From: Candidatus Nomurabacteria bacterium
GTDB lineage: Bacteria > Patescibacteriota > Saccharimonadia > Saccharimonadales > CAIOMD01
Assembly (NCBI GenBank): GCA_020631975.1
Contig: JACKGO010000003.1
Location: forward strand, 106,973-170,972
Length of the DNA: 64,000 bases
Direction: 5' to 3'
Shown here: positions 8,470-58,729 of the stretch, piece by piece
Numbering within the stretch: position 1 is the stretch's first letter
Layout of the letters: each line of letters begins with the position of its first letter
The notes under the pieces: model-generated
Told to the model about the DNA's origin: nothing
What the model saw: the letters and a program-made list of their open reading frames with translations, nothing else
Database searches by the model: none
Position numbers and translations under genes: made by a program

Positions 8470-9081
8470 ATGGATACACACATACAAACAATCAAAACAT
8501 GGCTCGGTACAGGATCAATAAACATCTTTGGCTTGCCATTTGCGGGTAAAGATACTCAGGGTCGTCTTTTTGCAAACTACTTAGAGGGGGTGCTTATATC
8601 TGGTGGCGATATACTCCGTAAGAGTCAAAGTAACCTAGAGCTACAACGCATTATGGCAGCTGGCGAGATTATTCCTACCAGTTTATGGGAAGAGATTGTT
8701 GTGCCATTTTTAGCAAACCCTGAATTTGCACAAAAACCGCTTATTTTAAGTGAAGTTGGGCGGTTACAGGGCGAAGAACGCATCGTAGAAAAGGCAACCT
8801 TAGCGACAGGTCACCCGCAAAAAGCCGTTATTTTACTCCAGCTGACCGACCAAGAGGTATGGAACAGATTTGATGCTGCCCAACAAGAGGGTGATCGAGG
8901 TGAGCGTGCAGATGATCGTCGTGACGTTATACAAACCCGTTTAGATAGTTATCACCATAAAGTGATGCCCGTTATAGAGCATTACCGTTCTAATGGATTG
9001 CTCATAGAAGTAGACGGTGCACAATCTCGCCAAGATGTCACAGAGCAAATTATTACAAGTTTAGTCGCACGAGCTACGTAG
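8470..9081 (+). CDS. Adenylate kinase-family nucleoside monophosphate kinase, divergent
   Basis: GLPFAGKDTQG P-loop-like segment and ISGGDILR / MAAGEIIP, arranged as in adenylate kinases. The P-loop is atypical (GK followed by D). Confidence 0.6.
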   Translation: MDTHIQTIKTWLGTGSINIFGLPFAGKDTQGRLFANYLEGVLISGGDILRKSQSNLELQRIMAAGEIIPTSLWEEIVVPFLANPEFAQKPLILSEVGRLQGEERIVEKATLATGHPQKAVILLQLTDQEVWNRFDAAQQEGDRGERADDRRDVIQTRLDSYHHKVMPVIEHYRSNGLLIEVDGAQSRQDVTEQIITSLVARAT

Positions 9082-10753
9082 TCGTAGGGCTACTATTGGC
9101 GGGTACTTTTTCTTCTACAACGTGGGTAGTTTTGTGTGTCATGTGGCCGTTTTTATCGACATCATAAACAAGAATGGTGTTAAATATCATTTCAACTTTT
9201 TCTATGTCTTCATCACTAATAGATTCAATGTATTTAATGAGCGCCCGAATACCGTTACCATGAGACACAATTAATATATTTTTGCCAGCAAGTAGCTGCG
9301 GTAGAATAGTTTTTTTATAAAATGCAACAACTCGTTTGTAGACATCCTTGAGCGTTTCGCCATTTGGTACAGGTTCATCCCAACCACGCCTAATGCGCTG
9401 AAACTTTTCTTCACCAATTAAATCACGAACTTCCCACTTATTTTTGCCAGTATAGTCACCATAATCACGCTCGTTAAGTGCAGCTTCTCTTTCATATTCT
9501 AAATCTAACTGCCCAGAAGCGTTTAATATACCTTCTATTGTTTCTAGCGTGCGTATCTGTTGCGAACAATACGCTTTGTCAAATGTCAGGTTTTGTATAG
9601 CTACCTCTTGGCCTAAGTAGCCAGCATCACGAAAGCCTTTACCACTTAAGTGTACGTCGGTAATTCCTGTCCACTGACCAGTTGCATTCCATTCTGATTC
9701 AGTATGTCGCACGATAGTTAGTTTTCCTGTTTGTTTCGCAGGCGGCTTAACAACATTCGGTGTATCGCCATACCAAAATTTGATGATATTTTCGCAGGTA
9801 ACAGCATTGATTCTACCGACTGCTTCTAGTGTGTTAAACGCATTGTGGGGGGTAAGAATAACATTTTCCATATGGCTAAGTGCTAGTATTTCTACACCGT
9901 ACTTAAGCATGTCAGAGCCAACTACATTGCTACGATAGAGCAACTCAACGTCGTCATCTACGTGTATTAAACGTTCACCTTCAACTACATCCAAGGCTGC
10001 GCCAGCAATTTTCTTTTTAGACAAGACCTCAAGGAGTGCTTTTGTATCTATAAGTTCACCTCTTGCGGTATTTATTAAAACCGCAGTTGGTTTCATACGG
10101 GCTAATTGATCCGAACCAATAAGATGTTTATTAGATGGAAAATAAGGTGCATGAATCGTTATAGCATCACTTTGTGACATAACTTCGTCTAGTGTAAGAT
10201 ACTGAAAGCCGAGTTCTTTGGCTGCATCTTTATTGGGATACGGATCATACGCAACCACATTCATACCAAACCCGTTCGCTATTTTTATTGACGATCTGCC
10301 GATGTGCCCCGTCCCAATAACCCCAAGTGTTCGTCCGTGTAAATCCCAACCGCATAGTTTATCTAACGGAGTATTGTCTTGGAACGATTTTAGCGTAGCG
10401 ACAAGCTTTCTCGATAGTGCCAGCAACAATGTAAACGCATATTCAGCAACGGTTTCTTCGCCGTAGGTAGGAACGTTTTCTACTATAATATTTCTCTCTT
10501 CGGCAGCGTTCATGTTGATATTGTTATAGCCTGTAGAACGACATGCAATTAAGCGCAACTTTGGTAGTGCCTGTATTATTTCTGCCGTCACCGAACTGGT
10601 TATAAATACAGATATAACTTCTGTTTCTGGGTCTAGGTTTTCTAGTGATATTGGTTCATCAACGAATTCCCAATGATGATCCGTGCCTATAAGCCCATTG
10701 GTTAGTTGTTGTTTATCTATTTCTGTTGAGTCATAAAAATATATTCGTGCCAT
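9074..10753 (-). CDS. Fusion protein: D-isomer-specific 2-hydroxyacid dehydrogenase (D-LDH/PGDH-like) N-terminal half plus 2,3-BPG-dependent phosphoglycerate mutase C-terminal half
   Basis: N-terminal half has GVIGTGHIGR, INTARG and TPH motifs. C-terminal half has RHTESEWN, RRGWD and VSHGNGIRAL (dPGM). The start was moved from 10933 to the internal ATG at 10753 (MARIYFYD) because the longer ORF overlaps the divergent eno start at 10803. Confidence 0.8.
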   Translation of the reverse strand: MARIYFYDSTEIDKQQLTNGLIGTDHHWEFVDEPISLENLDPETEVISVFITSSVTAEIIQALPKLRLIACRSTGYNNINMNAAEERNIIVENVPTYGEETVAEYAFTLLLALSRKLVATLKSFQDNTPLDKLCGWDLHGRTLGVIGTGHIGRSSIKIANGFGMNVVAYDPYPNKDAAKELGFQYLTLDEVMSQSDAITIHAPYFPSNKHLIGSDQLARMKPTAVLINTARGELIDTKALLEVLSKKKIAGAALDVVEGERLIHVDDDVELLYRSNVVGSDMLKYGVEILALSHMENVILTPHNAFNTLEAVGRINAVTCENIIKFWYGDTPNVVKPPAKQTGKLTIVRHTESEWNATGQWTGITDVHLSGKGFRDAGYLGQEVAIQNLTFDKAYCSQQIRTLETIEGILNASGQLDLEYEREAALNERDYGDYTGKNKWEVRDLIGEEKFQRIRRGWDEPVPNGETLKDVYKRVVAFYKKTILPQLLAGKNILIVSHGNGIRALIKYIESISDEDIEKVEMIFNTILVYDVDKNGHMTHKTTHVVEEKVPANSSPTTT

Positions 10754-12557: not shown

Positions 12558-12841
12558 ACAGCTATAGCCTACGCTTTATTTTTGGTTAGTTGTTAGTTTA
12601 CAGTGGTGATGTGTTGTCACACCATCGTATGCATATAAGTATATGCTTATGGTTTAGCACAGTCAATATGAAATTGCTCTTTTGTATAATATGTATTTTC
12701 GCATTGCAAATAGCATTTTAATAATTACTAAAATGTTTAGTAATTTTGTAGACAACATACCCCTGTTATGGTACTATTGACTAGCTTATTTATGCGCATA
12801 CTGGCTGGTTCATCCAGATTTTTATGTCACACATATAGCGC

Positions 12842-12858
12842 GGTCCCGTCGTCTAACG
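12842..12858 (+). repeat. Perfect copy of tRNA-Glu positions 1-17 (acceptor 5' strand to D-loop)
   Basis: GGTCCCGTCGTCTAACG is identical to 13037-13053. Confidence 0.9.
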
Positions 12859-13036
12859 TGAGAGTAGCCAGTAGGCTGCTCGCAAGAAAACCTTCCGATG
12901 AAAACTTGTTTTCAGTAGCGAAGTTTTGAGGCCACAGGATGTGGCAGGACATCAGTTTGCAAAGATGTTGTGACGGGCTCGCTAAAAGTGAGTCGATTCA
13001 GAATCGAACCCAGCTGCAGTATAATTAAGCTTACAT
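12859..13036 (+). other. Hairpin-rich non-coding segment (family member A5) between the tRNA-Glu 5' fragment and the intact tRNA-Glu; candidate structured RNA or miniature integrated element
   Basis: Hairpins: GTAGCC-AGTA-GGCTGC, TGAAAAC-TT-GTTTTCA (12899-12914), GCCAC-AGGAT-GTGGC, and GGCTCGC-TAAAA-GTGAGTC. About 33/41 nt match 28686-28726. GGGCTCGC..AGTGAGTCGA is shared with 51118-51140. It contains AGGACATCAG (12946-12955), which equals tRNA-Glu positions 21-30. It ends with TATAAT at 13020-13025. Confidence 0.6.
13020..13025 (+). promoter_or_regulatory. Candidate -10 box (TATAAT) for tRNA-Glu
   Basis: A consensus TATAAT lies 11 nt upstream of tRNA position 1. The same arrangement is seen upstream of tRNA-Lys, tRNA-Arg(TCG) and tRNA-His. 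Confidence 0.4.
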
Positions 13037-13111
13037 GGTCCCGTCGTCTAACGGTTAGGACATCAGGTTTTCATCCTGGAAACAGGGGTTCGATTCCCCT
13101 CGGGATCACCA
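13037..13111 (+). tRNA. tRNA-Glu (anticodon TTC), CCA encoded
   Basis: Manual cloverleaf: acceptor GGTCCCG/CGGGATC, D-stem GTCT/GGAC, anticodon stem TCAGG/CCTGG, loop TTTTCAT, T-arm AGGGG-TTCGATT-CCCCT. 75 nt. Confidence 0.93.
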
Positions 13112-13180
13112 ATAAAAATACCTCAGCTAGTCTGGGTGTTTTTATTGGTTGGTTGTCAACGGCAACCGGACACCTGTAAA

Positions 13181-13234
13181 GGGTTCAGATAATCCCCCTA
13201 AGCAAAGCGACAAACGGGCGGATTATACCCTAGT
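13181..13234 (+). other. Conserved junction module preceding the duplicated tRNA-Glu 3' end
   Basis: GGGTTCAGATAAT is followed by a long hairpin (ATAATCCCCC ... GGGCGGATTAT). The same 13-mer plus an equivalent hairpin (ATAATTT ... AAATTAT) sits before the duplicated tRNA-Arg 3' end at 50753-50790. Confidence 0.45.
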
Positions 13235-13254
13235 ATTCCCCTCGGGATCACCAA
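13235..13254 (+). repeat. Perfect copy of the tRNA-Glu 3' end (T-loop A58 to CCA plus 1 nt); att-type direct repeat
   Basis: ATTCCCCTCGGGATCACCAA is identical to 13093-13112. Confidence 0.9.
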
Positions 13255-13258
13255 AAGC

Positions 13259-13284
13259 GACTCACAGTATGTGGGTCTTTTTTT
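13259..13284 (+). terminator. Rho-independent terminator
   Basis: GACTCAC-AGTAT-GTGGGTC stem-loop followed by T7. Confidence 0.7.
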
Positions 13285-13378
13285 AGGAACGTTAGATTTC
13301 TGATCGCAAACTTAGTAAAACATACTGCCCCTAAAGCCACCCAGGCCAGGCCATAAGCGTCTGTTATAATAAATACCG

Positions 13379-17981: not shown

Positions 17982-19184
17982 TCAGGTGTCAGGGTGAATG
18001 ATAAACACCGAGACGAACGACAAGGGTTGGGGGTTAAACATTCCCCCCATGCTGTCAGAAGCGGTACCTGTGAGAGTGCCGTTTCCTTCAGCCTGGGCAC
18101 GGAAGTACCCTTGGTAGCAGGTCCATCCCGTTTCACACGGTGTCACACCGTCGCGTTCGGTCGAGACCGACCGCCAATTGTAGACACCACCGAGCGAACT
18201 CGGGGAGACTACCGGAGACCCCAGGGTGACCGTTGCGCCATCGAAGGCCTTTGCTCGTCCGAAGACAGGCATCGTGCCACCAGGATCGACAGCGTGCTCG
18301 CCGAGAAAGTACTCGGCGAGCGGGTTCTGGTGAACCGGCGTCGGCGTCGGCGTCGGATTTTGTTGGCACATAGCGTAAGCATTGCCTTCCATCGCCACCT
18401 CGGCTGACGCTTTCGCATCCGCCGATGCCTTAGTGCGGTTCTGTTGCCAGTACCGCACCGCTTGCCCTTCGGCATCGATTCGTGTCGACGAACGGAAAGT
18501 GATCCGTTCGTCAAACTCGAATTTTGCACTGCCAAGTCCCGTAACCCAGGATTCGGCAATACAGCCACCGAGCTCGACATGGGCTAACGCTCGTGCTTCA
18601 ATACCGACTACACCGTAGCCGGTCACTACCCACGTTAGTACAAGCTTCCGCTTGACATGGATTTGGGAGTACCTATACTTCGGCATCCTCCTTGTAGGTT
18701 CTGGGTTCTTGCACCTGTTCACCCATTTTGACGCCTTCGGATACCCCATGTGGAAGTATTTGCACCCAGCGTTTGGGGCAAAACTCGTCCACGGGGTTGT
18801 GATGGCGTGGTTCGGGATATTGACTCGTCCCGAACTTGAGTTGTAGGTGGTAGGGTAGGTTTTACCCCGCTTGAGCCGAAACACCTTGCAGGTTTTTACA
18901 CCTGCCTGGTAGTTTTTGACAAACGGAGCTTTCCGCGCCTTACCCACCGAGAGCTTTGGAGCGGCAGGGTCGTTGACCCACCCCACCAGCAACCGACCCT
19001 TCGAGTCAGTTGTGATGGCTGTGGATGATATTACATGCACTGCGCTGTCGGCGGTTTCCTTGAAAAAAACCTCCGACTTCATGCTGACCGGGTCTTCGGC
19101 GGCGCTGGCGGAGTTCGTAATGAACCCCCCCAAGCCAATCATCACCGCCAGAGCGGCGATGAAGCTAAATATCTTCCTGATCAT
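17982..19184 (-). CDS. GC-rich secreted protein of unknown function; probable foreign origin
   Basis: Sampled 60-nt lines are about 50-65% GC against an AT-rich background. The ATG at 19184 is preceded by GAAGGAGGG and gives the signal peptide MIRKIFSFIAALAVMIGLGGFITNSASA. PTPTPTP linker. No recognisable domain. Confidence 0.75.
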   Translation of the reverse strand: MIRKIFSFIAALAVMIGLGGFITNSASAAEDPVSMKSEVFFKETADSAVHVISSTAITTDSKGRLLVGWVNDPAAPKLSVGKARKAPFVKNYQAGVKTCKVFRLKRGKTYPTTYNSSSGRVNIPNHAITTPWTSFAPNAGCKYFHMGYPKASKWVNRCKNPEPTRRMPKYRYSQIHVKRKLVLTWVVTGYGVVGIEARALAHVELGGCIAESWVTGLGSAKFEFDERITFRSSTRIDAEGQAVRYWQQNRTKASADAKASAEVAMEGNAYAMCQQNPTPTPTPVHQNPLAEYFLGEHAVDPGGTMPVFGRAKAFDGATVTLGSPVVSPSSLGGVYNWRSVSTERDGVTPCETGWTCYQGYFRAQAEGNGTLTGTASDSMGGMFNPQPLSFVSVFIIHPDT

Positions 19185-19371
19185 CGATCTGCCCTCCTTC
19201 AAGGGGTGTCTTGGCGGAACTTCCGCCACACGCCCCTTATGGGCGCGGTTTATTATTTACAGCTATCTGTGCTATACGCAATAAACCACGCCCATTAGGA
19301 GGTCATAACCTGTAGTAGTTAGTGTCATATGGGCATTCGGCCACAAGCTTAAAAATAAGCTTGGGCTGCAA

Positions 19372-28541: not shown

Positions 28542-28664
28542 ATATCCTCCTCTTTTAATATTAGTATTATACGCCTAGCGCCATGTAAATAGACAGTTTA
28601 CATTTTGTAATTGATATGCAATAATTACCCCTGTTGTTTTTTAACACTCAACATATCTACAACA

Positions 28665-28805
28665 GGTCTGTAGCTCAGCTGGTTACCTTGCGATAAAAAC
28701 TTGTTTTCAATCGAGAAGTTCAGGGGTCGCAGAATGTACCTTGCCTCTTCCAAGCTCCGCTCGCTATAAAGATTGAATAGCACTTTTAGATATAATAGAT
28801 ACTAT
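28665..28805 (+). other. tRNA-like 5' fragment plus hairpin-rich segment (family member B5) directly upstream of tRNA-Lys
   Basis: At 28665-28685, GGTCTGTAGCTCAGCTGGTTA; its 16 nt at 28670-28685 equal tRNA-Lys 28812-28827. At 28686-28726, CCTTGCGATAAAAACTTGTTTTCAATCGAGAAGTTCAGGGG is about 80% identical to 12891-12931. CTTGCCTCTTCCAAG resembles the tRNA-Lys anticodon arm. GCTCGCTATAAAGATTGAAT resembles 12977-13000. TATAAT at 28791-28796. Confidence 0.6.
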
Positions 28806-28882
28806 GGGCCAGTAGCTCAGCTGGTTAGAGCACCTGCCTCTTAAGCAGGGTGTCGAGGGTTCGAGCCCCTCCTGGCCCTCCA
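28806..28882 (+). tRNA. tRNA-Lys (anticodon CTT), CCA encoded
   Basis: Acceptor GGGCCAG/CTGGCCC, anticodon stem CCTGC/GCAGG, loop CTCTTAA, T-arm GAGGG-TTCGAGC-CCCTC. 77 nt. Confidence 0.93.
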
Positions 28883-28912: not shown

Positions 28913-28936
28913 CGCCTCAAGACAGAGGCGTTTTTT
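28913..28936 (+). terminator. Rho-independent terminator after tRNA-Lys
   Basis: CGCCTC-AAGACA-GAGGCG followed by T6. Confidence 0.75.
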
Positions 28937-33798: not shown

Positions 33799-34771
33799 AT
33801 GAAAGCTGCTGTAAATGAAACCTACGGTCCTCCTTCTGTCATTAAGATAAAAGGGGTTAAAAAGCCAACACCAAGGCCAAATGAAATTTTGGTAGAAGTG
33901 CATTATTCGTCTGTTAATAGAACAGACGTAGGATTTTTAAGGGCCAAGCCTTTTGTAACTCGCTTTTTTACAGGAATAATTAAACCAAAATATCTTACGC
34001 TAGGGTGTGAATATTCTGGAATTGTTAAAGACCTAGGTAAAGATGTAAAAAAATTCAAGTTAGGCGATAGGGTGTTTGGGTTTGACGATAGTAACTTTGG
34101 AGGTTACGCGGAGTATAAGATTGTTAATGAAAACCAAATGGTCGAAACCATTCCGAGTAACACAACACTTGAACAAGCAGCTGTAGCGCTTGAAGGCGCC
34201 CACTATGCCCTTTTTTATATATAAAGTTCCCGAATCTAAAAAAACTAGGGTGTTTGTTAATGGGGCAACCGGTGCTATTGGTTCTGCCGGTGTACAAATT
34301 CTAAAAGCATTAGGTTACTACGTAGAAGCTAGTAGCACTACTAAAGATATTGGAAAAGTTAAAAAATTGGGAGCAGACAAGGTAATTGACTGGGAAAAGC
34401 AAGATATCACGCGCGTAGCATCTAAGTGCGACGTATACTTTGATGCAGTGGGAAAAAGTTCTTTCAAGCAAGCTAAAAAAATACTCAAGCCCCATGGGAT
34501 ATATATGTCTAGCGAGCTTGGACCATATGGGCAAAATCCACTATTGGCGCTGTTCAATGTAGTTCAAAGACTATTTACAAAACGTAATGTATATTTTCCT
34601 ATTCCAAAGACCAGGTTAAAAGAAGCTACGATAATTAAACAATATCTTGCAAATGGTACATTCATTCCTTTAATAGATAAAACATATAGCCTAGTAGATA
34701 TTCAAAAAGCTTTTCAATATGTAGAGTCTGGCAAAAAAGTTGGCAATGTCGTTATAAAAGTAAAAAAATAG
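33799..34771 (+). pseudogene. Zinc-type alcohol dehydrogenase / quinone oxidoreductase (MDR family) split by a frameshift
   Basis: ORF 33799-34224 is the GroES-like N-terminal domain. ORF 34190-34771 carries VNGATGAIGSAGVQ (Rossmann). Removing one T from the T6 run at 34211-34216 joins them as ...GAHYALFIYKVPESKK... Confidence 0.75.
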
Positions 34772-39100: not shown

Positions 39101-40312
39101 ATGTCTTTTAACCGTAATCGCCGTGGACCAAGCGGCTCTTTTGGCGGCCCTGGCCGTTCATTCAAAAATAATAACCGTAGAGGTGCCGGTTCTAAAAAAC
39201 GCACAGGTGAATATATTAACCCAGCTAAATTTGTGCAAGCAGCTAAACCTTCTACCCAAACAGAATACGTCGCGCAAAATAGCTTTGATGATTTTGCTAT
39301 AAACGACGTTATAAAAACGAATTTGGCAAGTGGTGGCTATAGCACGCCTTCGCCTATTCAAGACCAAACTATAGCCTACGGCATAGATGGTCATGATATT
39401 GTTGGCGTAGCTAACACGGGCACTGGTAAGACAGCTGCCTTTGCTGTACCTATTATTCATAACGCTATGCGCTTTTCTGATGCATATGCATTAATTGTAG
39501 CGCCCACACGTGAGCTTGCGCAGCAAATAGAACAAGAAGCTAAAAAAATTGGCAAAAACAGTGGACTGTATAGCGCCCTATTAATTGGTGGCATGCCTAT
39601 GGGCCCACAACTTGGCCAATTACGAGCAAAACCGCAAATTGTTATTGGAACACCCGGCAGAATCAAAGATCATATAGAAAGACAATCGTTTGATGTTAGT
39701 AAATTTAATATGGTTGTACTAGACGAAGTAGACCGTATGTTAGATATGGGGTTCTTGCCTGATGTAAAACACATATTGCAACAATTGTCACCAGAACGTC
39801 AGAGTTACTTCTTTTCTGCAACGCTTGACCAAAGAGTCAAAGGGCTTATTACCCAGTTTGCGCCAAAACATATTTCTGTTTCTGTAAAAACAGCACCAAG
39901 TAGCGAAAACGTAGATCAGAATGTCGTGCAATATGGCACAACAAGTCATAAGATAGAAAAATTACATGACATATTAATTAGTCATCAAGATATAAAAGTA
40001 ATAGTATTTGATGAAACTCAAAGAAACGTAGAGCGACTATCTAAAGAACTGCAAGCGAGAGGCTTTAGCGCAACCGCTATACATGGTGGCAAAACACAAG
40101 GCCAAAGAAAGCGTGCATTAGACGAATTTAAAGCAAATAAAGCCAAAATACTCGTAGCTACTGACGTTGCTGCTCGTGGCATTGATGTAAAAGACATTAC
40201 ACATGTTATTAACTACTCTCTACCTCAGACTTACGATGATTACGTACACCGAATAGGACGTACTGGCCGAGCCGGCAAAACAGGCTATGCACTTACATTT
40301 GTAAGTAAATAG
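39101..40312 (+). CDS. DEAD-box ATP-dependent RNA helicase
   Basis: Q-motif region, ANTGTGKTAAF, PTRELA, DEVD, SAT and HRIGRTGRAG. Arg/Gly-rich N-terminus. Confidence 0.92.
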   Translation: MSFNRNRRGPSGSFGGPGRSFKNNNRRGAGSKKRTGEYINPAKFVQAAKPSTQTEYVAQNSFDDFAINDVIKTNLASGGYSTPSPIQDQTIAYGIDGHDIVGVANTGTGKTAAFAVPIIHNAMRFSDAYALIVAPTRELAQQIEQEAKKIGKNSGLYSALLIGGMPMGPQLGQLRAKPQIVIGTPGRIKDHIERQSFDVSKFNMVVLDEVDRMLDMGFLPDVKHILQQLSPERQSYFFSATLDQRVKGLITQFAPKHISVSVKTAPSSENVDQNVVQYGTTSHKIEKLHDILISHQDIKVIVFDETQRNVERLSKELQARGFSATAIHGGKTQGQRKRALDEFKANKAKILVATDVAARGIDVKDITHVINYSLPQTYDDYVHRIGRTGRAGKTGYALTFVSK

Positions 40313-40741: not shown

Positions 40742-40818
40742 GCACCCGTAGCTCAGCGGATTAGAGTACTTGGCTTCGAACCAAGGGGTCGCAGGTTCGA
40801 ATCCTGCCGGGTGTACCA
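40742..40818 (+). tRNA. tRNA-Arg (anticodon TCG), CCA encoded
   Basis: Acceptor GCACCCG/CGGGTGT (G1-U72), anticodon stem CTTGG/CCAAG, loop CTTCGAA, T-arm GCAGG-TTCGAAT-CCTGC. 77 nt. TATAAT lies upstream. Confidence 0.9.
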
Positions 40819-41015
40819 CGTCTATATTTAAGGGCTTCTCTATAGAAGTCTTTTTTTTGTAACTTAGTACGTCAATTTCGACAATAGATAGAAAATACGG
40901 CTCGTATATAACTCAGCGTTTTGCTTCAAATAATTTCATGGTGATAATTTTGTACATAGCCGTTTTTCATGTTTTTATAGTTGTAATATTTTTGATTTTG
41001 TGTTATAGTAATTAT

Positions 41016-49201: not shown

Positions 49202-49277
49202 GCCCCGGTAGCTCAGTGGATAGAGCAAGTGGGTTCTAACCATTAGGTCGGGGGTTCGAATCCCTCCCGGGGTGCCA
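49202..49277 (+). tRNA. tRNA-Arg (anticodon TCT), CCA encoded
   Basis: Acceptor GCCCCGG/CCGGGGT, anticodon stem AGTGG/CCATT, loop GTTCTAA, T-arm GGGGG-TTCGAAT-CCCTC. 76 nt. Confidence 0.9.
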
Positions 49278-49282
49278 AGCAT

Positions 49283-49307
49283 AAGCGTTATCGAAAGATA
49301 GCGTTTT
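49283..49307. terminator. Stem-loop terminator shared by tRNA-Arg and the convergent NUDIX gene
   Basis: AAGCGTTATC-GAAA-GATAGCGTTT followed by a T-run. A near-copy lies at 51165-51191. Confidence 0.65.
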
Positions 49308-49312
49308 ATATA

Positions 49313-49780
49313 TTATTTTACAATGCCTTTATCAAGAGCCACTTGATAAGATTTCCAAAACTGAGAATGTAGTGGGCTGGGTAGCGTTTTACTAGTGAAC
49401 CAACCGATTTCTTCAATCTTGTCAGGTTCACCAATCTTGACTTTGTCTGGGTCAACTTGTACCGCATGCATTATAGCAACCCAGTGTGTTTTTATTGATT
49501 TATTTACTCTAAATGCATCGTAAACTGTCAGAAAGTCAATCGACATCGGTATTACACAAAGCTCTTCGAAAATTTCTCTGCTTACAGCTTCTGAGATTGA
49601 TTCACCAAATTCTATAGCGCCCCCACCAACATCCCATTTACCATTTTCATCTCGGGCTCGTTGGCCTCGTTTTTGCAACAACACTCTACCTTGACCGTCG
49701 TGCACTACAAAACTAGCCGAAATGCCGATATAGTCAACACCTCTTTTTATATCGTTTATATCATCTATTGAACAGTTCAT
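49313..49780 (-). CDS. NUDIX hydrolase
   Basis: Nudix box GGGAIEFGESISEAVSREIFEELC. Confidence 0.88.
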   Translation of the reverse strand: MNCSIDDINDIKRGVDYIGISASFVVHDGQGRVLLQKRGQRARDENGKWDVGGGAIEFGESISEAVSREIFEELCVIPMSIDFLTVYDAFRVNKSIKTHWVAIMHAVQVDPDKVKIGEPDKIEEIGWFTSKTLPSPLHSQFWKSYQVALDKGIVK

Positions 49781-49861
49781 TTGTAATATTATAACTAATA
49801 TATAGCCATACTTTGCATAAAGGTTTGTATAATTTAATTATTTTAATGATATTATTACTTA

Positions 49862-50658
49862 ATGAAAAGATTCGAAGCATTACTATCTGATGCTGATGGT
49901 ACATTAATCGACAGTGTTCCTCTTATTAAGCATGGGCAATACGAAACAGCTATTACTTTCTTAAAAGCACACGGCTTAGCTGATAGCGATTTACCGGATT
50001 TTCCAACATACGAAACGGCTCTAAATCAAACCGTTGGGGGTAGCGCTAGAGATACGCTGGAACGGACAGTCAGAATGCTTTATTCGGACAGAGAGCATCA
50101 TATAAATGGAGCTGATTTTGATGTTTTACATAATATGCTAAACCCTGTGCAAGATAGGATTGCACCGGGTATATAAGAGCATATCCTGGCCTACAGTTAC
50201 TTCTAAAGAATCTCGGTACACACAGTTTAAAACTTGCAATTTTTACAAGCGGAACACCGCATCATGTAGTAAGAAATATGGGTATAGCTCTGCCAGAACT
50301 TGGGCTTACCAAACTATTTAAAGATGAAACTATATCTGACCGTGAAAAACTAGTACATTTTGAAAAAGAAGTAGAAAAATATTATAGAATTCCTATTTTT
50401 ACTGTTGTAACTATAGAAGATACAAAAGAACCTAAACCAGATCCAGAAGGCTTGCAGATAGCTATGAAAAGATTGAGCGTAGAGCCAAATGATTGTGCCA
50501 TGCTTGGTGATCATAAGGCCGATATGCAAGCAGGATTTAATGCAACTGTGCCAATTAGGATTGGTATAACTCATGGCTTTGACGATAAAGAAACACTGGA
50601 AGAAGCTAAAGCTACTGAGATAGTTACTAACCTTAGCGACATAAAGTTAGAGTCCTAA
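49862..50658 (+). pseudogene. HAD-superfamily hydrolase interrupted by a frameshift
   Basis: ORF 49862-50176 carries motif I (DADGTLIDS). The frame of ORF 50278-50658 extends upstream as AYPGLQLLLKNLGTHSLKLAIFTSGT (motif II) and carries GDHKADMQAG (motif IV). The frames switch near 50165-50185. Confidence 0.7.
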
Positions 50659-50752
50659 CTTTGTATACGACAGTGTGCCATATTAAATCATTCACCTTCA
50701 TGGTGGATTTTTTAATATGACGTCGCTGAAAGCGAATTGAACCCCCCAAGGA

Positions 50753-50843
50753 GGGTTCAGATAATTTGAGTAGTTTACGAAAATTATATGATGAAACCGA
50801 ATTTGCCATTCCATAAATAAAGGCAAATCTGGCTTGAAGCTAT
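50753..50843 (+). other. Junction module preceding the duplicated tRNA-Arg 3' end
   Basis: GGGTTCAGATAAT (50753-50765) plus the hairpin ATAATTT...AAATTAT, then the hairpin TTTGCC...GGCAAA. It parallels 13181-13234. Confidence 0.45.
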
Positions 50844-50863
50844 AATCCCTCCCGGGGTGCCAA
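50844..50863 (+). repeat. Perfect copy of the tRNA-Arg(TCT) 3' end (T-loop A58 to CCA plus 1 nt); att-type direct repeat
   Basis: AATCCCTCCCGGGGTGCCAA is identical to 49259-49278. Confidence 0.9.
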
Positions 50864-50898: not shown

Positions 50899-51164
50899 TG
50901 ATTCCGAGATAATTCGTACACTCGACCGTTGGTCGGGTGAAAACTGCCTGTGGCAGTTTGCAAGGCCGGAAACTGATTTAAAGCTATGCTTTAAGTAAGT
51001 TGAGGCGGGGTCGCAACCGATTGGCAGCTTGCTGTCAGTAGGATTGTGCCGAGAATTGCCGGTGGCAATTCGCAAGGAAACAAACACTTGAAAACTATGT
51101 TTTCAAAGCTGTTTTTTCGGGCTCGCCGGAAGTGAGTCGAAATTCCTGCCGGGTTACAAAGCAT
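50899..51164 (+). other. Hairpin-rich non-coding segment (family member C5) ending in a decayed tRNA-Arg 3' end
   Basis: Perfect 7-8 bp hairpins with 3-nt loops at 50941-50959, 50978-50994, 51053-51071 and 51088-51106. The unit hairpin-YGCAAGG-AAAC occurs twice. TTGAAAAC-TAT-GTTTTCAA and GGGCTCGCCGGAAGTGAGTCGA are shared with 12899-12998. GTCGAAATTCCTGCCGGGTTACA aligns to GTTCGAATCCCTCCCGGGGTGCCA. Confidence 0.6.
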
Positions 51165-51191
51165 AAGCGTTATCGTAAGATAACGTTTTTT
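51165..51191 (+). terminator. Terminator stem-loop, paralogue of 49283-49307
   Basis: AAGCGTTATC-GTAA-GATAACGTTT followed by T-run. One G-to-A change converts a wobble pair into a Watson-Crick pair. Confidence 0.6.
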
Positions 51192-51210
51192 ATTTGGTAT
51201 AATTAATTTC

Positions 51211-57214: not shown

Positions 57215-58729
57215 TTATTTTGCGAATTCTATAGCACGAGTTTCGCGGATAACGTTAACCTTAATAGTCCCTGGGTACTGCATAGTTGACTCAATCTTTG
57301 TAGCGATATCTCGTGCTAGTTTAATAGCGCTTAAATCATCGACTGTATTTGGCTGTACAATGATTCTTATTTCGCGGCCAGCGCTGATGGCATATGCTTT
57401 ATCTATACCACTAAAGCTTGTTGCAACATTTTCTAGTTCACGCATACGCTCTGCAAAGTTTTCGGCACTAATATTTCTGGCACCTGGGCGTGCTGCACTT
57501 ATTGCGTCTACAACGCGTATGACAAGTGCTTCTACAGTAGTGGCTTCTATGTCATCATGGTGAGCTTCTATCGCATGTACGATGTCGTCTGGCACACCGT
57601 ATTTACGAGCCATTTCTGCAGAAATATGGTGGTGTTTGCCCTCTATTTTATGAGTAAGCGCTTTGCCCATATCGTGTAGGAGCGCAGCATATTTACAGAC
57701 ACGCACGTCTGCACCAATTTGTTCGGCAATAATACCAGCCATATGGGCCATTTCTGTAGAATGCTTTAATACATTTTGGCCAAAACTGGTTCGATACTTT
57801 AACTCACCAAGCAGCTGTAATAGTTCACGTGGTATGCCAACAACACCTACTTCTCTTGCGGCATCTTCACCAGCCCGAATGACTTCTTTATGAACGTGTT
57901 TTTGAGCTTTTTCTACCACTTCTTCTATACGGCCAGGATGAACACGCCCATCTTTAAGAAGCATTTCTAAAGCTACACGGGCTACTTCGCGGCGGATAGG
58001 GTCAAAACTGCTTAAAATAATCATGCCGGGTGTATCATCTACAAGTATATCTACGCCAGTGGCACGCTGTAAGGCTTGTATATTACGGCCTTCTTTACCT
58101 ATGATGCGACCTTTCATTTCTTCGTCTTCTAGCTTTACGGCGGTAACTGTTCGTTCTGCCGTCACGTCGCTTGCCATACGCTCCATGGCGCTTACAATAA
58201 TCATTCCAGCGGTTTCCTCTGCTAGATCTTTGGCGTCATTCTGAAGTTTAGCAATTAAACCGGCAAGATCATTTTTTATATCTCGCTCTGTCATTTGCAT
58301 GAGCTTATCGGCTGCTTCTTTTTTGGTGAGCTTAGCAACCTTTTCTAGCTTTTCTTGTTGCTTAACACGCAATTCTCTAATTTCATTTTTTAATGATTCT
58401 ACTTCGTCCTCATTATAGCGCAACTTTTCAGACCGCTTGTCTAACTCATCAAGCTTTTTATCTAGCGTAGTTTCTCTGTCTATTATGCGCGATTCTTTGT
58501 CTTTTAACTCTTTGCGTAGTTGCTGATCTGCTTTGCGTGCGTCTTCTGCTTTACGAGCAGCTTCTTCTTCTGCTTTACGCGTGATTGCTGCAGCTTCTTT
58601 ATTGGCTTTGGCAAGCTGTTTCTCTGCTTCGTTAGCTGCTGTACCTATTTTTCTTCGCGTTACTACCTGGCTGGCACCAAAACCAGCACCAGCCGCAATT
58701 ACGGCCAATAATAATCCTATTGGTTCCAT
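57215..58729 (-). CDS. rny: Ribonuclease Y
   Basis: N-terminal TM helix, a coiled-coil Lys/Glu-rich region, KH domain (GRIIGKEGRNI) and HD domain (LLHDMGK). The start is set at MEPIGLL, preceded by AAGGGAG. Confidence 0.92.
   Translation of the reverse strand: MEPIGLLLAVIAAGAGFGASQVVTRRKIGTAANEAEKQLAKANKEAAAITRKAEEEAARKAEDARKADQQLRKELKDKESRIIDRETTLDKKLDELDKRSEKLRYNEDEVESLKNEIRELRVKQQEKLEKVAKLTKKEAADKLMQMTERDIKNDLAGLIAKLQNDAKDLAEETAGMIIVSAMERMASDVTAERTVTAVKLEDEEMKGRIIGKEGRNIQALQRATGVDILVDDTPGMIILSSFDPIRREVARVALEMLLKDGRVHPGRIEEVVEKAQKHVHKEVIRAGEDAAREVGVVGIPRELLQLLGELKYRTSFGQNVLKHSTEMAHMAGIIAEQIGADVRVCKYAALLHDMGKALTHKIEGKHHHISAEMARKYGVPDDIVHAIEAHHDDIEATTVEALVIRVVDAISAARPGARNISAENFAERMRELENVATSFSGIDKAYAISAGREIRIIVQPNTVDDLSAIKLARDIATKIESTMQYPGTIKVNVIRETRAIEFAK

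Follow-up and report, generated by a model that had tools for sequence, protein, structure and literature searches.

What is the sequence at positions 28665-28805, directly upstream of the tRNA-Lys gene, in a 64,000-nt stretch of the Candidatus Nomurabacteria contig JACKGO010000003.1 (hereafter the window)? The window is a chromosome segment of approximately 40% GC, with housekeeping genes and eight tRNA genes. A first-pass annotation, made from the DNA letters, had divided the locus into a tRNA 5' fragment, a block resembling the spacer upstream of tRNA-Glu, an anticodon-arm-like segment, a further related block and a TATAAT box, and had read it as a mobile, tRNA-directed non-coding insertion and not as random decay. 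All five components were found where that annotation had placed them. The best explanation of 28665-28805 is that it represents the eroded remnant of an old insertion, in the tRNA-Lys gene, of a sequence that we term element E. Element E is a family of about 90 nt, non-coding and built from three helices (P1-P3), which has not been described previously. We give a probability of roughly 0.5 to the reading that E units are miniature non-autonomous elements, which insert in tRNA genes and restore the gene with a promoter or terminator and a tRNA segment of their own.

The tRNA-Lys locus is composed as follows:

28597-28625, + strand: native tRNA-Lys promoter, TTTACA-17-AATAAT, TG-extended, followed by tACCCCTGTT (promoter scan 10/12)
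28665-28685, + strand: displaced tRNA-Lys 5' fragment GGTCTGTAGCTCAGCTGGTTA of 21 nt, comprising acceptor 5' strand, D-stem 5' strand and D-loop
28686-28739, + strand: element E remnant, P2 and P3 (covariance model 21.7 bits, E = 0.012)
about 28687-28718, + strand: helix P2 of the remnant, CTTGCGAT-AAAAAC-TT-GTTTTC-AATCGAGAAG
about 28723-28739, + strand: helix P3 of the remnant, GGGGTCGC-AGAA-TGTAC
28740-28754, + strand: anticodon-arm remnant of the interrupted tRNA-Lys copy, CTTGCCTCTTCCAAG against CCTGCCTCTTAAGCAGG in tRNA-Lys (sequence comparison)
28757-28779, + strand: remnant of a second E, with the P3 5' strand GCTCGCTATAAAG (28759-28771) followed by T-loop-like ATTGAAT
28791-28796, + strand: TATAAT -10 box, 9 nt 5' of the tRNA-Lys start at 28806
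28806-28882, + strand: functional tRNA-Lys(CTT) (ARAGORN; Rfam 69.8 bits)
28913-28930: terminator after tRNA-Lys (terminator scan)

The final 16 nt of GGTCTGTAGCTCAGCTGGTTA are identical to positions 28812-28827 of tRNA-Lys (16/16), and 3/7 positions of its acceptor portion have diverged. With up to two mismatches allowed, the window contains four occurrences of this 16-mer where 0.02 would be expected by chance, and the two matches beyond the fragment and tRNA-Lys are the D-arms of tRNA-Arg and tRNA-His. The proposed relatedness of the following block to the tRNA-Glu upstream spacer was upheld: 28686-28720 is identical to the spacer at 30/35 positions, the best local alignment of the block gives 42/53 (79%), a score that none of 1000 shuffles attains, and identity to the E copy at tRNA-Glu amounts to 79-86%. 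The hairpin core described at first, AAAACTTGTTTTCA, is real but forms only the tip of helix P2 in a three-helix unit. The covariance-model match at tRNA-Lys spans 28659-28744, and its score is low because helix P1 has been deleted. The minimum free energy fold of the remnant alone has z = +1.5, so that residual structure signal is absent, consistent with decay. Further downstream, GCTCGCTATAAAG is matched by GCTCGCTAAAAG, and 28757-28779 by GCTCGCTAAAAGTGAGTCGATTC, at the sister locus upstream of tRNA-Glu (locus A); in the left-to-right reading of the stretch, CCGCTCGCTATAAAGATTGAAT stands between CTTGCCTCTTCCAAG and TATAAT. As judged from sequence, the native promoter would now drive the pseudo-fragment and the E remnant, while the TATAAT box probably serves the functional tRNA-Lys, having either arrived with the insertion or evolved inside it. 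Since a terminator scan from the native promoter to tRNA-Lys returned no terminator between them, the remnant is likely to be co-transcribed as a long tRNA-Lys leader.

The Lys copy is one of several in the window. The first-pass annotation had named 50899-51164 (locus 3) as a third locus of the family, and 1.5 E copies were indeed located there. The copies and associated features at loci A and 3 are:

12842-13036, + strand: locus A, sister unit at tRNA-Glu, 195 nt
12842-12858: tRNA-Glu 5' fragment
12858-12949, + strand: E copy at the tRNA-Glu locus (E1), in the D-loop (covariance model 70 bits)
12946-12955: tRNA segment AGGACATCAG
12956-12994: 5'-truncated second E
12975-12994: E piece, P3 only (covariance model)
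12993-12999: T-loop
13000-13011: antisense T-arm
12997-13025: locus A promoter TTCAGA-17-TATAAT, its -35 in the T-loop/antisense hairpin (promoter scan 10/12)
50937-51020, + strand: E_a of locus 3 (covariance model 42 bits)
51049-51140, + strand: E_b of locus 3 (covariance model 95 bits; locus-3 fold z = -6.5)
51137-51158, + strand: tRNA-Arg-like 3' fragment TCGAAATTCCTGCCGGGTTACA after E_b
about 51165-51195: locus 3 terminator

A motif common to loci A and 3, GGGCTCGCnnnAAGTGAGTCGA, was used to recover relatives from genome and metagenome collections. In the aligned relatives, E reads (G)TGARAA, helix P1, TTYGCAAGGAAA, the long helix P2, GTTTC and helix P3. The last of these, GGCTCGC...GTGAGTC, includes two invariant G.T pairs and has 1-2 flank nucleotides built into it. 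An alignment with a test for covariation, and a search for further copies, had been suggested at the outset, and both were run. RNAalifold assigned 33 pairs to 11 E copies, with compensatory changes in 19. When 20 copies were aligned to the covariance model, 94.1% of the cells were paired against 74.6% in shuffles, 24/33 pairs were altered on both sides, the covariation score was 0.50 against 0.16 in shuffles and at most 0.11 in slid controls, and none of 500 shuffles attained the observed covariation values, figures to be read with the caveat that this alignment was itself fitted to the model. The covariance model, built from relatives in other genomes, gave 24 matches in 14 sources, showing that the family extends beyond the window.

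Among the collections scanned, E was found only in Candidatus Saccharibacteria. In a pattern scan of species-representative genomes, six of nine matches were metagenome-assembled genomes of Candidatus Saccharibacteria (Saccharimonadales), and the other three were chance matches within coding DNA. Pattern matches in the non-Saccharibacteria L012, L016, L018, L021, L022, L025, L026, L030, L031, L033 and L034 (labels of this form denote genomes and contigs other than the window) were likewise rejected as chance, as they lie in coding DNA with the rest of E absent.

The flanks of E match the adjacent tRNA in every copy whose neighbouring tRNA is on the contig, and at least seven tRNA identities are represented (Arg-TCG, Arg-TCT, Ala, Lys, Gln, Glu and Leu), so the element was aptly called tRNA-directed. 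The tRNA sequence resumes 3' of E, and E therefore sits within a tRNA copy and not at a simple truncation. The copies had been described as D-loop-truncated; they are partial, but they are interrupted and not merely cut short. In the downstream type, a complete tRNA is followed by a terminator, an antisense T-arm copy, a short loop, the sense variable loop with the T-stem 5' strand, E, the rest of the sense T-loop, the T-stem 3' strand, the acceptor 3' strand to CCA and a second terminator. This order is present in L011 (Arg-TCG), L017 (Ala), L019 (Lys), L023 (Gln), L024 (Leu), L027 (Arg-TCT, twice) and L029 (Glu), and in L038, L043 and L046 (all Lys). In the upstream type, found in the window (Glu and Lys), L015 and L023 (Gln), L024 (Leu), L027 (Arg) and L043 (Lys), the native promoter is followed by the tRNA 5' part, E, the next few tRNA nucleotides, an antisense segment, a new -10 box and the complete tRNA. 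The flanks were aligned locally to the cognate tRNA and to the reverse complement of that tRNA, and shuffled flanks served as controls. Sense flanks matched the cognate tRNA at p < 0.004 in nearly all copies. The antisense arm was the best or clearly significant (p <= 0.003) in 6/9 downstream copies tested against the neighbouring tRNA, and significant or marginal (p <= 0.04) in 4/5 well-scoring upstream copies.

This layout is one of replacement, with the native promoter motif before the pseudo-fragment and a new -10 box before the real tRNA. The displaced piece of the downstream type precedes the apparent native terminator, and that of the upstream type stays at the native promoter. A terminator containing AGCATAAGC lies after the displaced 3' fragment in L027, and its window counterpart lies directly after tRNA-Arg(TCT). 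If E units are indeed miniature non-autonomous elements, each unit would carry a replacement tRNA segment, accompanied in the upstream type by a promoter and in the downstream type by a terminator, and would recombine with the tRNA gene through the shared tRNA sequence, an enzyme encoded elsewhere acting in trans. The displaced original piece of the tRNA stays fused to E, and the tRNA remains intact thanks to the duplicated segment. E and its sense and antisense tRNA arms would fold as a single strand, of DNA or RNA, into an attachment or recognition site resembling the attC hairpin of integrons. The window remnant would merely be co-transcribed in the tRNA-Lys leader and removed by RNase P.

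The AGCATAAGC-plus-hairpin terminator module was also observed after differing tRNAs and fragments (window 49278-49310 and 51160-51195; L027 8092-8120; L029), and from its placement it behaves as if it were travelling with the units. A separate observation concerns the conserved context (T/A)ATAAT-t-ACCCCTGTT, which lies 5' of many Saccharibacteria tRNA genes (window 28620-28636 and 12757-12768; L027 7604-7620; L038; L043) and may be a discriminator or regulatory motif.

The insertion points are in the T-loop between positions 53 and 55, in the D-loop (Glu, Gln) and at the D-stem/position 26 (Lys), and every site is 3' of a G, with 1-4 nt lost. Such sites could also be expected if E were a tiny transposable or retro-mobile insertion, possibly ribozyme-like, which targets exposed D- and T-loops and survives only in redundant tRNA copies, the direct-inverted-direct segments being by-products of fold-back or template-switch repair. 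All three positions follow a G, with 1-4 nt replaced, and two of them are at the D-loop/T-loop elbow; moreover, two E stand colinear in one pseudo-tRNA (window Glu; window Lys/L043), and the antisense copy stems from an uninterrupted tRNA and in some cases runs as far as CCA, which places direct, inverted and direct segments in turn around the terminator. We nevertheless consider this explanation unlikely. No reverse transcriptase or transposase was found near E copies, no known ribozyme family in Rfam was matched, and E has neither terminal inverted repeats nor a target duplication of fixed length. The boundaries of the units are tRNA ends, and the units hold promoters and terminators, which is a better fit to cassette-like units.

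The arms vary with the tRNA, over at least seven identities, while E and the loop GCCAAG (in the Arg, Lys, Ala and L014 copies) stay constant. In the predicted fold of the L027 unit, a multi-helix junction with z = -3.65, the sense and antisense arms together with P1-P3 make up a five-helix junction. These arms bear on a further proposal, namely that E and its tRNA-matched arms are the core of a protein-less mobile element, in which the folded single strand recognises tRNA genes or tRNAs via the copied arms and inserts at the elbow or the ends by a new mechanism, ribozyme-like or relying on a housekeeping enzyme. We hold this proposal to be possible, though doubtful. Were it true, the tRNA-anchored cassette arrays of Saccharibacteria would amount to integron-like gene capture with tRNA genes as the docking site. 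The two invariant G.T pairs in P3 weakly favour the tRNA-sense strand as the acting form.

The same architecture of terminator, antisense T-arm, sense T-stem, insert and tRNA 3' end also holds inserts unrelated to E. These were noted in the window (13112-13253 and 50671-50862), at tRNA-Gly in L027 (7020-7190), at tRNA-Glu in L045 (17660-17890) and at tRNA-Lys in L040 (about 9565-9640, and 8560-8800), including tandem GGGCCAG-plus-hairpin repeats 5' of tRNA-Lys. The two window inserts, at tRNA-Glu (13112-13253) and tRNA-Arg(TCT) (50671-50862), form a second small module family, which includes GGGTTCAGATAAT..., ends in a tRNA 3' copy and has its insert at T-loop positions 56/58. Cargo cassettes devoid of E end in ACAG plus the last 6-10 nt of the tRNA (window 50668-50680; L038 about 9125-9135; L027 about 9600-9640), a signature that would fit a second site of crossover at the very 3' terminus of the tRNA.

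Comparison of strains showed that the family gains or loses copies as discrete units. The contig L063 (GCA_041402185.1), one of ten carrying an identical ABC-transporter protein, is without exactly the 195 nt of locus A, 12842-13036, and over the rest of 12700-13300 it is identical to the window save for a one-base difference in the length of a G-run in the window. The tRNA-Glu site is bounded by a 17-nt direct repeat, GGTCCCGTCGTCTAACG, which corresponds to tRNA-Glu positions 1-17. In two other species, L045 and L046, no E match was obtained upstream of tRNA-Glu. Near locus 3, a 182-nt module (about 50681-50862) is exactly absent in L047 and L049 and is bounded by GTGCCA, the tRNA-Arg(TCT) 3' end. 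A 111-nt E_a segment is absent in the strain contig L051, the remainder of which is identical apart from the antisense arm. In L027, two E copies 1.8 kb apart are identical over the aligned E positions, and both lie in matching units of tRNA 3' end, terminator, antisense arm and E. The L038 array reads tRNA-Lys, NT5C, E, APH, E (decayed) and methyltransferase, all in tRNA orientation. Random decay, which the first-pass annotation had discounted, fits neither the covarying structure nor the precise presence or absence of the locus A unit between strains with identical flanks.

At locus 3 the L051 contig (641-1081) has only one E, with an antisense arm that departs from that of the window (50899-50936) at about 8/22 positions and is the better T-arm complement, which suggests allele replacement or conversion of the arm.

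The arrays are relevant to the idea that the E loci are inert scars, namely att-site junction leftovers of integrase-driven tRNA islands, with E as the conserved arm sequence of one island family. Islets anchored at tRNAs and containing partial tRNA repeats are common here (tRNA-Arg(TCT) / NUDIX-HAD / fragment; the L038 and L040 arrays), differing islands lie 3' of tRNA-Lys among strains, and the idea agrees with the serial-integration model of tycheposons (10.1101/2020.12.28.424599). Compensatory evolution in E, however, is not expected of scars; complete units are 180-260 nt and cargo-free; no integrase is present in or near any array; and E stands inside a tRNA loop, with retained tRNA sequence on either side and an accompanying antisense arm. 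We thus regard inert scars as very improbable.

Several neighbouring features were recorded alongside. A 1.6-kb islet (window 49202-50862) with a NUDIX gene (- strand), a HAD hydrolase gene and small open reading frames (ORFs) is enclosed by the gene for tRNA-Arg(TCT) and an 18-nt sequence (50845-50862) that repeats the 3' end of this tRNA perfectly; in the window the HAD gene is broken into two parts, 49862-50176 and 50278-50658, and it is an intact 265-aa ORF in L047-L049 and L052. At the 3' side of tRNA-Lys (from about 28884 onward), CsoR and a Cu-ATPase are found in the window, and PNPOx, a methyltransferase and APH in L006 and L007. In the relatives L035, L038, L040 and L043, tRNA-Lys anchors a region of variable cassettes that takes up the whole interval from FolD to CorA. 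Inside the window's tRNA-Lys island, a zinc-type alcohol dehydrogenase occupies two overlapping ORFs (ADH_N and ADH_zinc_N, 33799-34771) and is probably a frameshifted pseudogene.

The Lys copy itself can be placed in time by means of the relatives. L043, a Saccharibacterium whose FolD is 67% identical and whose DUF5684-FolD synteny is as in the window, has at the orthologous place AATAAT-tACCCCTGTT, GGGCCAGTAGCTCAGCTGGTTAGA, an intact E (91 bits), CCTGCCTCTTCCGAG, GCTCGGCAAAAAC..., CATAAT and tRNA-Lys. The window copy can be aligned to it throughout, with about 34 nt missing that comprise P1 and the GCAAGG joiner, and P2-P3 of the two are about 83% identical by eye. In L035 (FolD 75% identical) the unit at tRNA-Lys has decayed further than in the window, and ten of ten strain contigs of the window species are 100% identical over the Lys region. 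The upstream unit at tRNA-Lys is present in the window, L043 and L035 and absent in L038, L046, L045 and L011. An AATAAT/GATAAT-tacccctgtt motif lies immediately 5' of the functional tRNA-Lys in L038, and in L046, which has no insertion, the gene's own TATAAT promoter does so; in L043 and L035 the native promoter motif stands before the pseudo-fragment. Because the promoter directly precedes the tRNA in L038 and L046, the pseudo-fragment corresponds to the original tRNA-Lys 5' end, and the working tRNA has gained a new -10 box. Shared at one position and behind one native promoter with L043 and L035, the Lys copy is not recent. Thus the claim of a mobile insertion is plausible for the family, which is polymorphic between strains, but not in the sense of a recent event for the Lys copy, found as it is in L043, L035 and all ten strain contigs.

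A rival reading takes E to be a host RNA with a structure and function of its own, a leader or trailer linked to the tRNA, whose antisense arm toggles between the E-bearing decoy and the real tRNA, thereby controlling folding, maturation or read-through, the partial copies being mimics kept by selection or gene conversion. The L043 orthologue retains an intact E, and the identity of about 83% over P2-P3 compares with about 55-60% in the adjacent spacer (both by eye). The covariation of E is strong, the upstream copies lie between promoter and tRNA with no terminator and hence are co-transcribed, the flanks in each of five species track that species' own tRNA-Lys T-stem, and 1-2 flank nucleotides are incorporated in P3. 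In contrast, copies are dispensable within species and many are decayed (the window Lys copy, L035 and the second L038 copy), the tRNAs bearing E differ among genomes without forming a consistent set, the downstream copies lie after a terminator, and identical architecture is found with unrelated inserts. A host function of this kind is therefore considered improbable.

The possibility of a known family was addressed with several searches. Rfam 15 at the gathering threshold returned only tRNAs in the window, and a permissive Rfam scan (E <= 10) of loci A and 3 gave no relevant family, intron or ribozyme. Searches by blastn of E against phage and plasmid collections gave no match, and literature searches returned no description of element E. 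A group I (or II) intron was rejected on the lack of an Rfam match at E <= 10 and on size, position, truncated exons and the 1-4 nt missing. A functional intron is excluded because the loop is not correctly rebuilt when E is removed, and because every E-bearing copy is incomplete in at least one half. The first-pass annotation had offered an intron-like or a miniature integrative element as alternatives; the former fails on the truncated copies, the missing nucleotides and the absence of an Rfam intron, and the integrative element is the better option. A miniature inverted-repeat transposable element was likewise discarded, as the ends of E (TGAGAA..., ...GTGAG) do not form inverted repeats and a target duplication of constant length is not seen; the duplications around E units are tRNA segments of 6, 17, 22 or >50 nt. 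A TnpB, IscB or Cas guide RNA, an IS200/IS605 derivative and an IS110 bridge RNA were set aside, no such protein being nearby in any locus examined and a tRNA segment being duplicated. The guide-RNA idea arose from the conserved scaffold abutting a target-identical variable segment, but a guide against an adjacent essential gene would be senseless. ORF432, between the two copies of L027, was rejected as a recombinase and is treated as cargo because it has no Pfam match and no homologue in the other loci.

Two further candidates in the window were dismissed. The 18-mers resembling the tRNA-Arg(TCG) 3' end (16/18) at 58020-58037 (+ strand) and 39646-39663 (- strand) are coincidental, since they are the reverse complement of Thr-Pro-Gly-containing codons in the RNase Y and DEAD-box helicase genes. 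The antisense 'tRNA-Arg' called by ARAGORN at 40761-40831 (- strand), overlapping tRNA-Arg(TCG) at 40742-40818, is an artefact, because Rfam supports the + strand gene only. Elsewhere, a 2-kb stretch whose GC content of 50.6% compares with about 40% in the rest of the window may be foreign DNA; it includes a 415-aa ORF (17982-19229) for which Pfam gave no match.

Certain results weigh against the reading of E units as miniature mobile elements and are taken together here. No integrase, transposase or reverse transcriptase was found adjoining any E copy or within +/-10 kb of the tRNA-Lys arrays, except for an rve-type insertion sequence (IS) in L038; this search consisted of Pfam scans of the neighbours (window, L011, L017, L019, L027) and precomputed Pfam data for L035-L046. 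No circular or free form was seen, and IMG/VR contigs contained no true E copy, three pattern scans giving chance matches in coding DNA. The classical attP x attB reaction leaves the tRNA-matched antisense arms, with their constant loop and E, unexplained. Deletion between short direct repeats, and not insertion, could account for the strain polymorphisms, and the data fit either. The Lys copy, fixed and old, is silent on the activity of the family. Clustering of E copies is not clean by tRNA, genome or type and is uninformative at 90 nt. The preference for the tRNA-sense strand rests chiefly on the two invariant G.T pairs of P3, with 12 G.T against 9 A.C pairs outside P3 and 22 against 11 in the flank helices.

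The reading of E units as miniature non-autonomous elements has a number of consequences. Saccharibacteria and other members of the candidate phyla radiation (CPR) have tiny genomes, in which each tRNA gene is present once, and exchange genes freely. To our knowledge, the vehicles of gene exchange in Saccharibacteria and the CPR are poorly known, and the mobile-element biology of the phylum is largely unknown. If correct, the many partial tRNA copies around essential tRNA genes would be explained by an element that inserts there and leaves the gene active, and the small gene cassettes in the stack behind tRNA-Lys may have E as their docking module. Partial tRNA copies of this kind can mislead tRNA annotation and the prediction of att sites and islands. 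Should E prove to be a cis-acting recombination site, genetic work on the few Saccharibacteria that are both cultivable and naturally competent could gain a tool. The Lys copy is a fossil, yet through it an element family came to light that is undescribed, conserved in structure and recently polymorphic.

Among known systems, the group I introns reported in Patescibacteria tRNA genes (PMC13011429) are likewise non-coding structured insertions in tRNA genes of the same phylum. In contrast to E, of 90 nt and lying in the D-/T-region of truncated copies, those introns exceed 200 nt, occupy the anticodon loop of functional genes and are self-splicing; E has no Rfam intron match, and its excision leaves the loop unrestored. 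The IS200/IS605 derivatives and the omega RNA of TnpB/IscB share with E a compact scaffold abutting a variable segment equal to the target, and non-coding copies. Unlike them, E has no TnpA, TnpB or IscB nearby and no Rfam family match, IS200/IS605 makes no duplication while E units duplicate a tRNA segment, and an omega RNA guide matching the neighbouring essential tRNA would target its own host.

Integron cassettes are comparable in that they have no integrase of their own, form arrays by one fixed site (as in L038) and cross over near a G/TT-like core (T-loop GGTTCGA, D-loop GGTTAG). They also bear a structured imperfect inverted repeat with compensatory change at the distal end; a possible counterpart in E units is the pair of sense and antisense tRNA arms, which are significant in most copies, with the 90-nt insert in one arm and a weak strand bias. 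Unlike in integrons, the +/-10 kb around the arrays contained no IntI, attI or Pc. In attC structure is conserved and not sequence, whereas the stem of an E unit is tRNA sequence and its complement, one arm holding a sequence-conserved three-helix insert.

The tycheposons of Prochlorococcus, tRNA-gene islands built by serial integration (10.1101/2020.12.28.424599), employ tyrosine recombinases and are kilobases long, whereas complete E units are 180-260 nt, non-coding and smaller by two orders of magnitude, with no element-encoded tyrosine or serine recombinase in the scanned E neighbourhoods. Unlike tycheposons, E units can replace the 5' part and promoter of a tRNA gene as well as the 3' part, and they hold a conserved 90-nt structured module in a tRNA loop together with an antisense tRNA arm. 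Tycheposon-like islands and E units nevertheless agree in being tRNA-anchored, in regenerating an intact tRNA with partial tRNA copies at the boundaries, in arrays where newer units push older ones outward, and in the occurrence of cargo-only and degenerate units. As in such islands, E units have a full tRNA on one side and a partial copy on the other, and their presence/absence edges fall exactly at tRNA repeats, both in the 195-nt tRNA-Glu unit and in the 182-nt GTGCCA unit.

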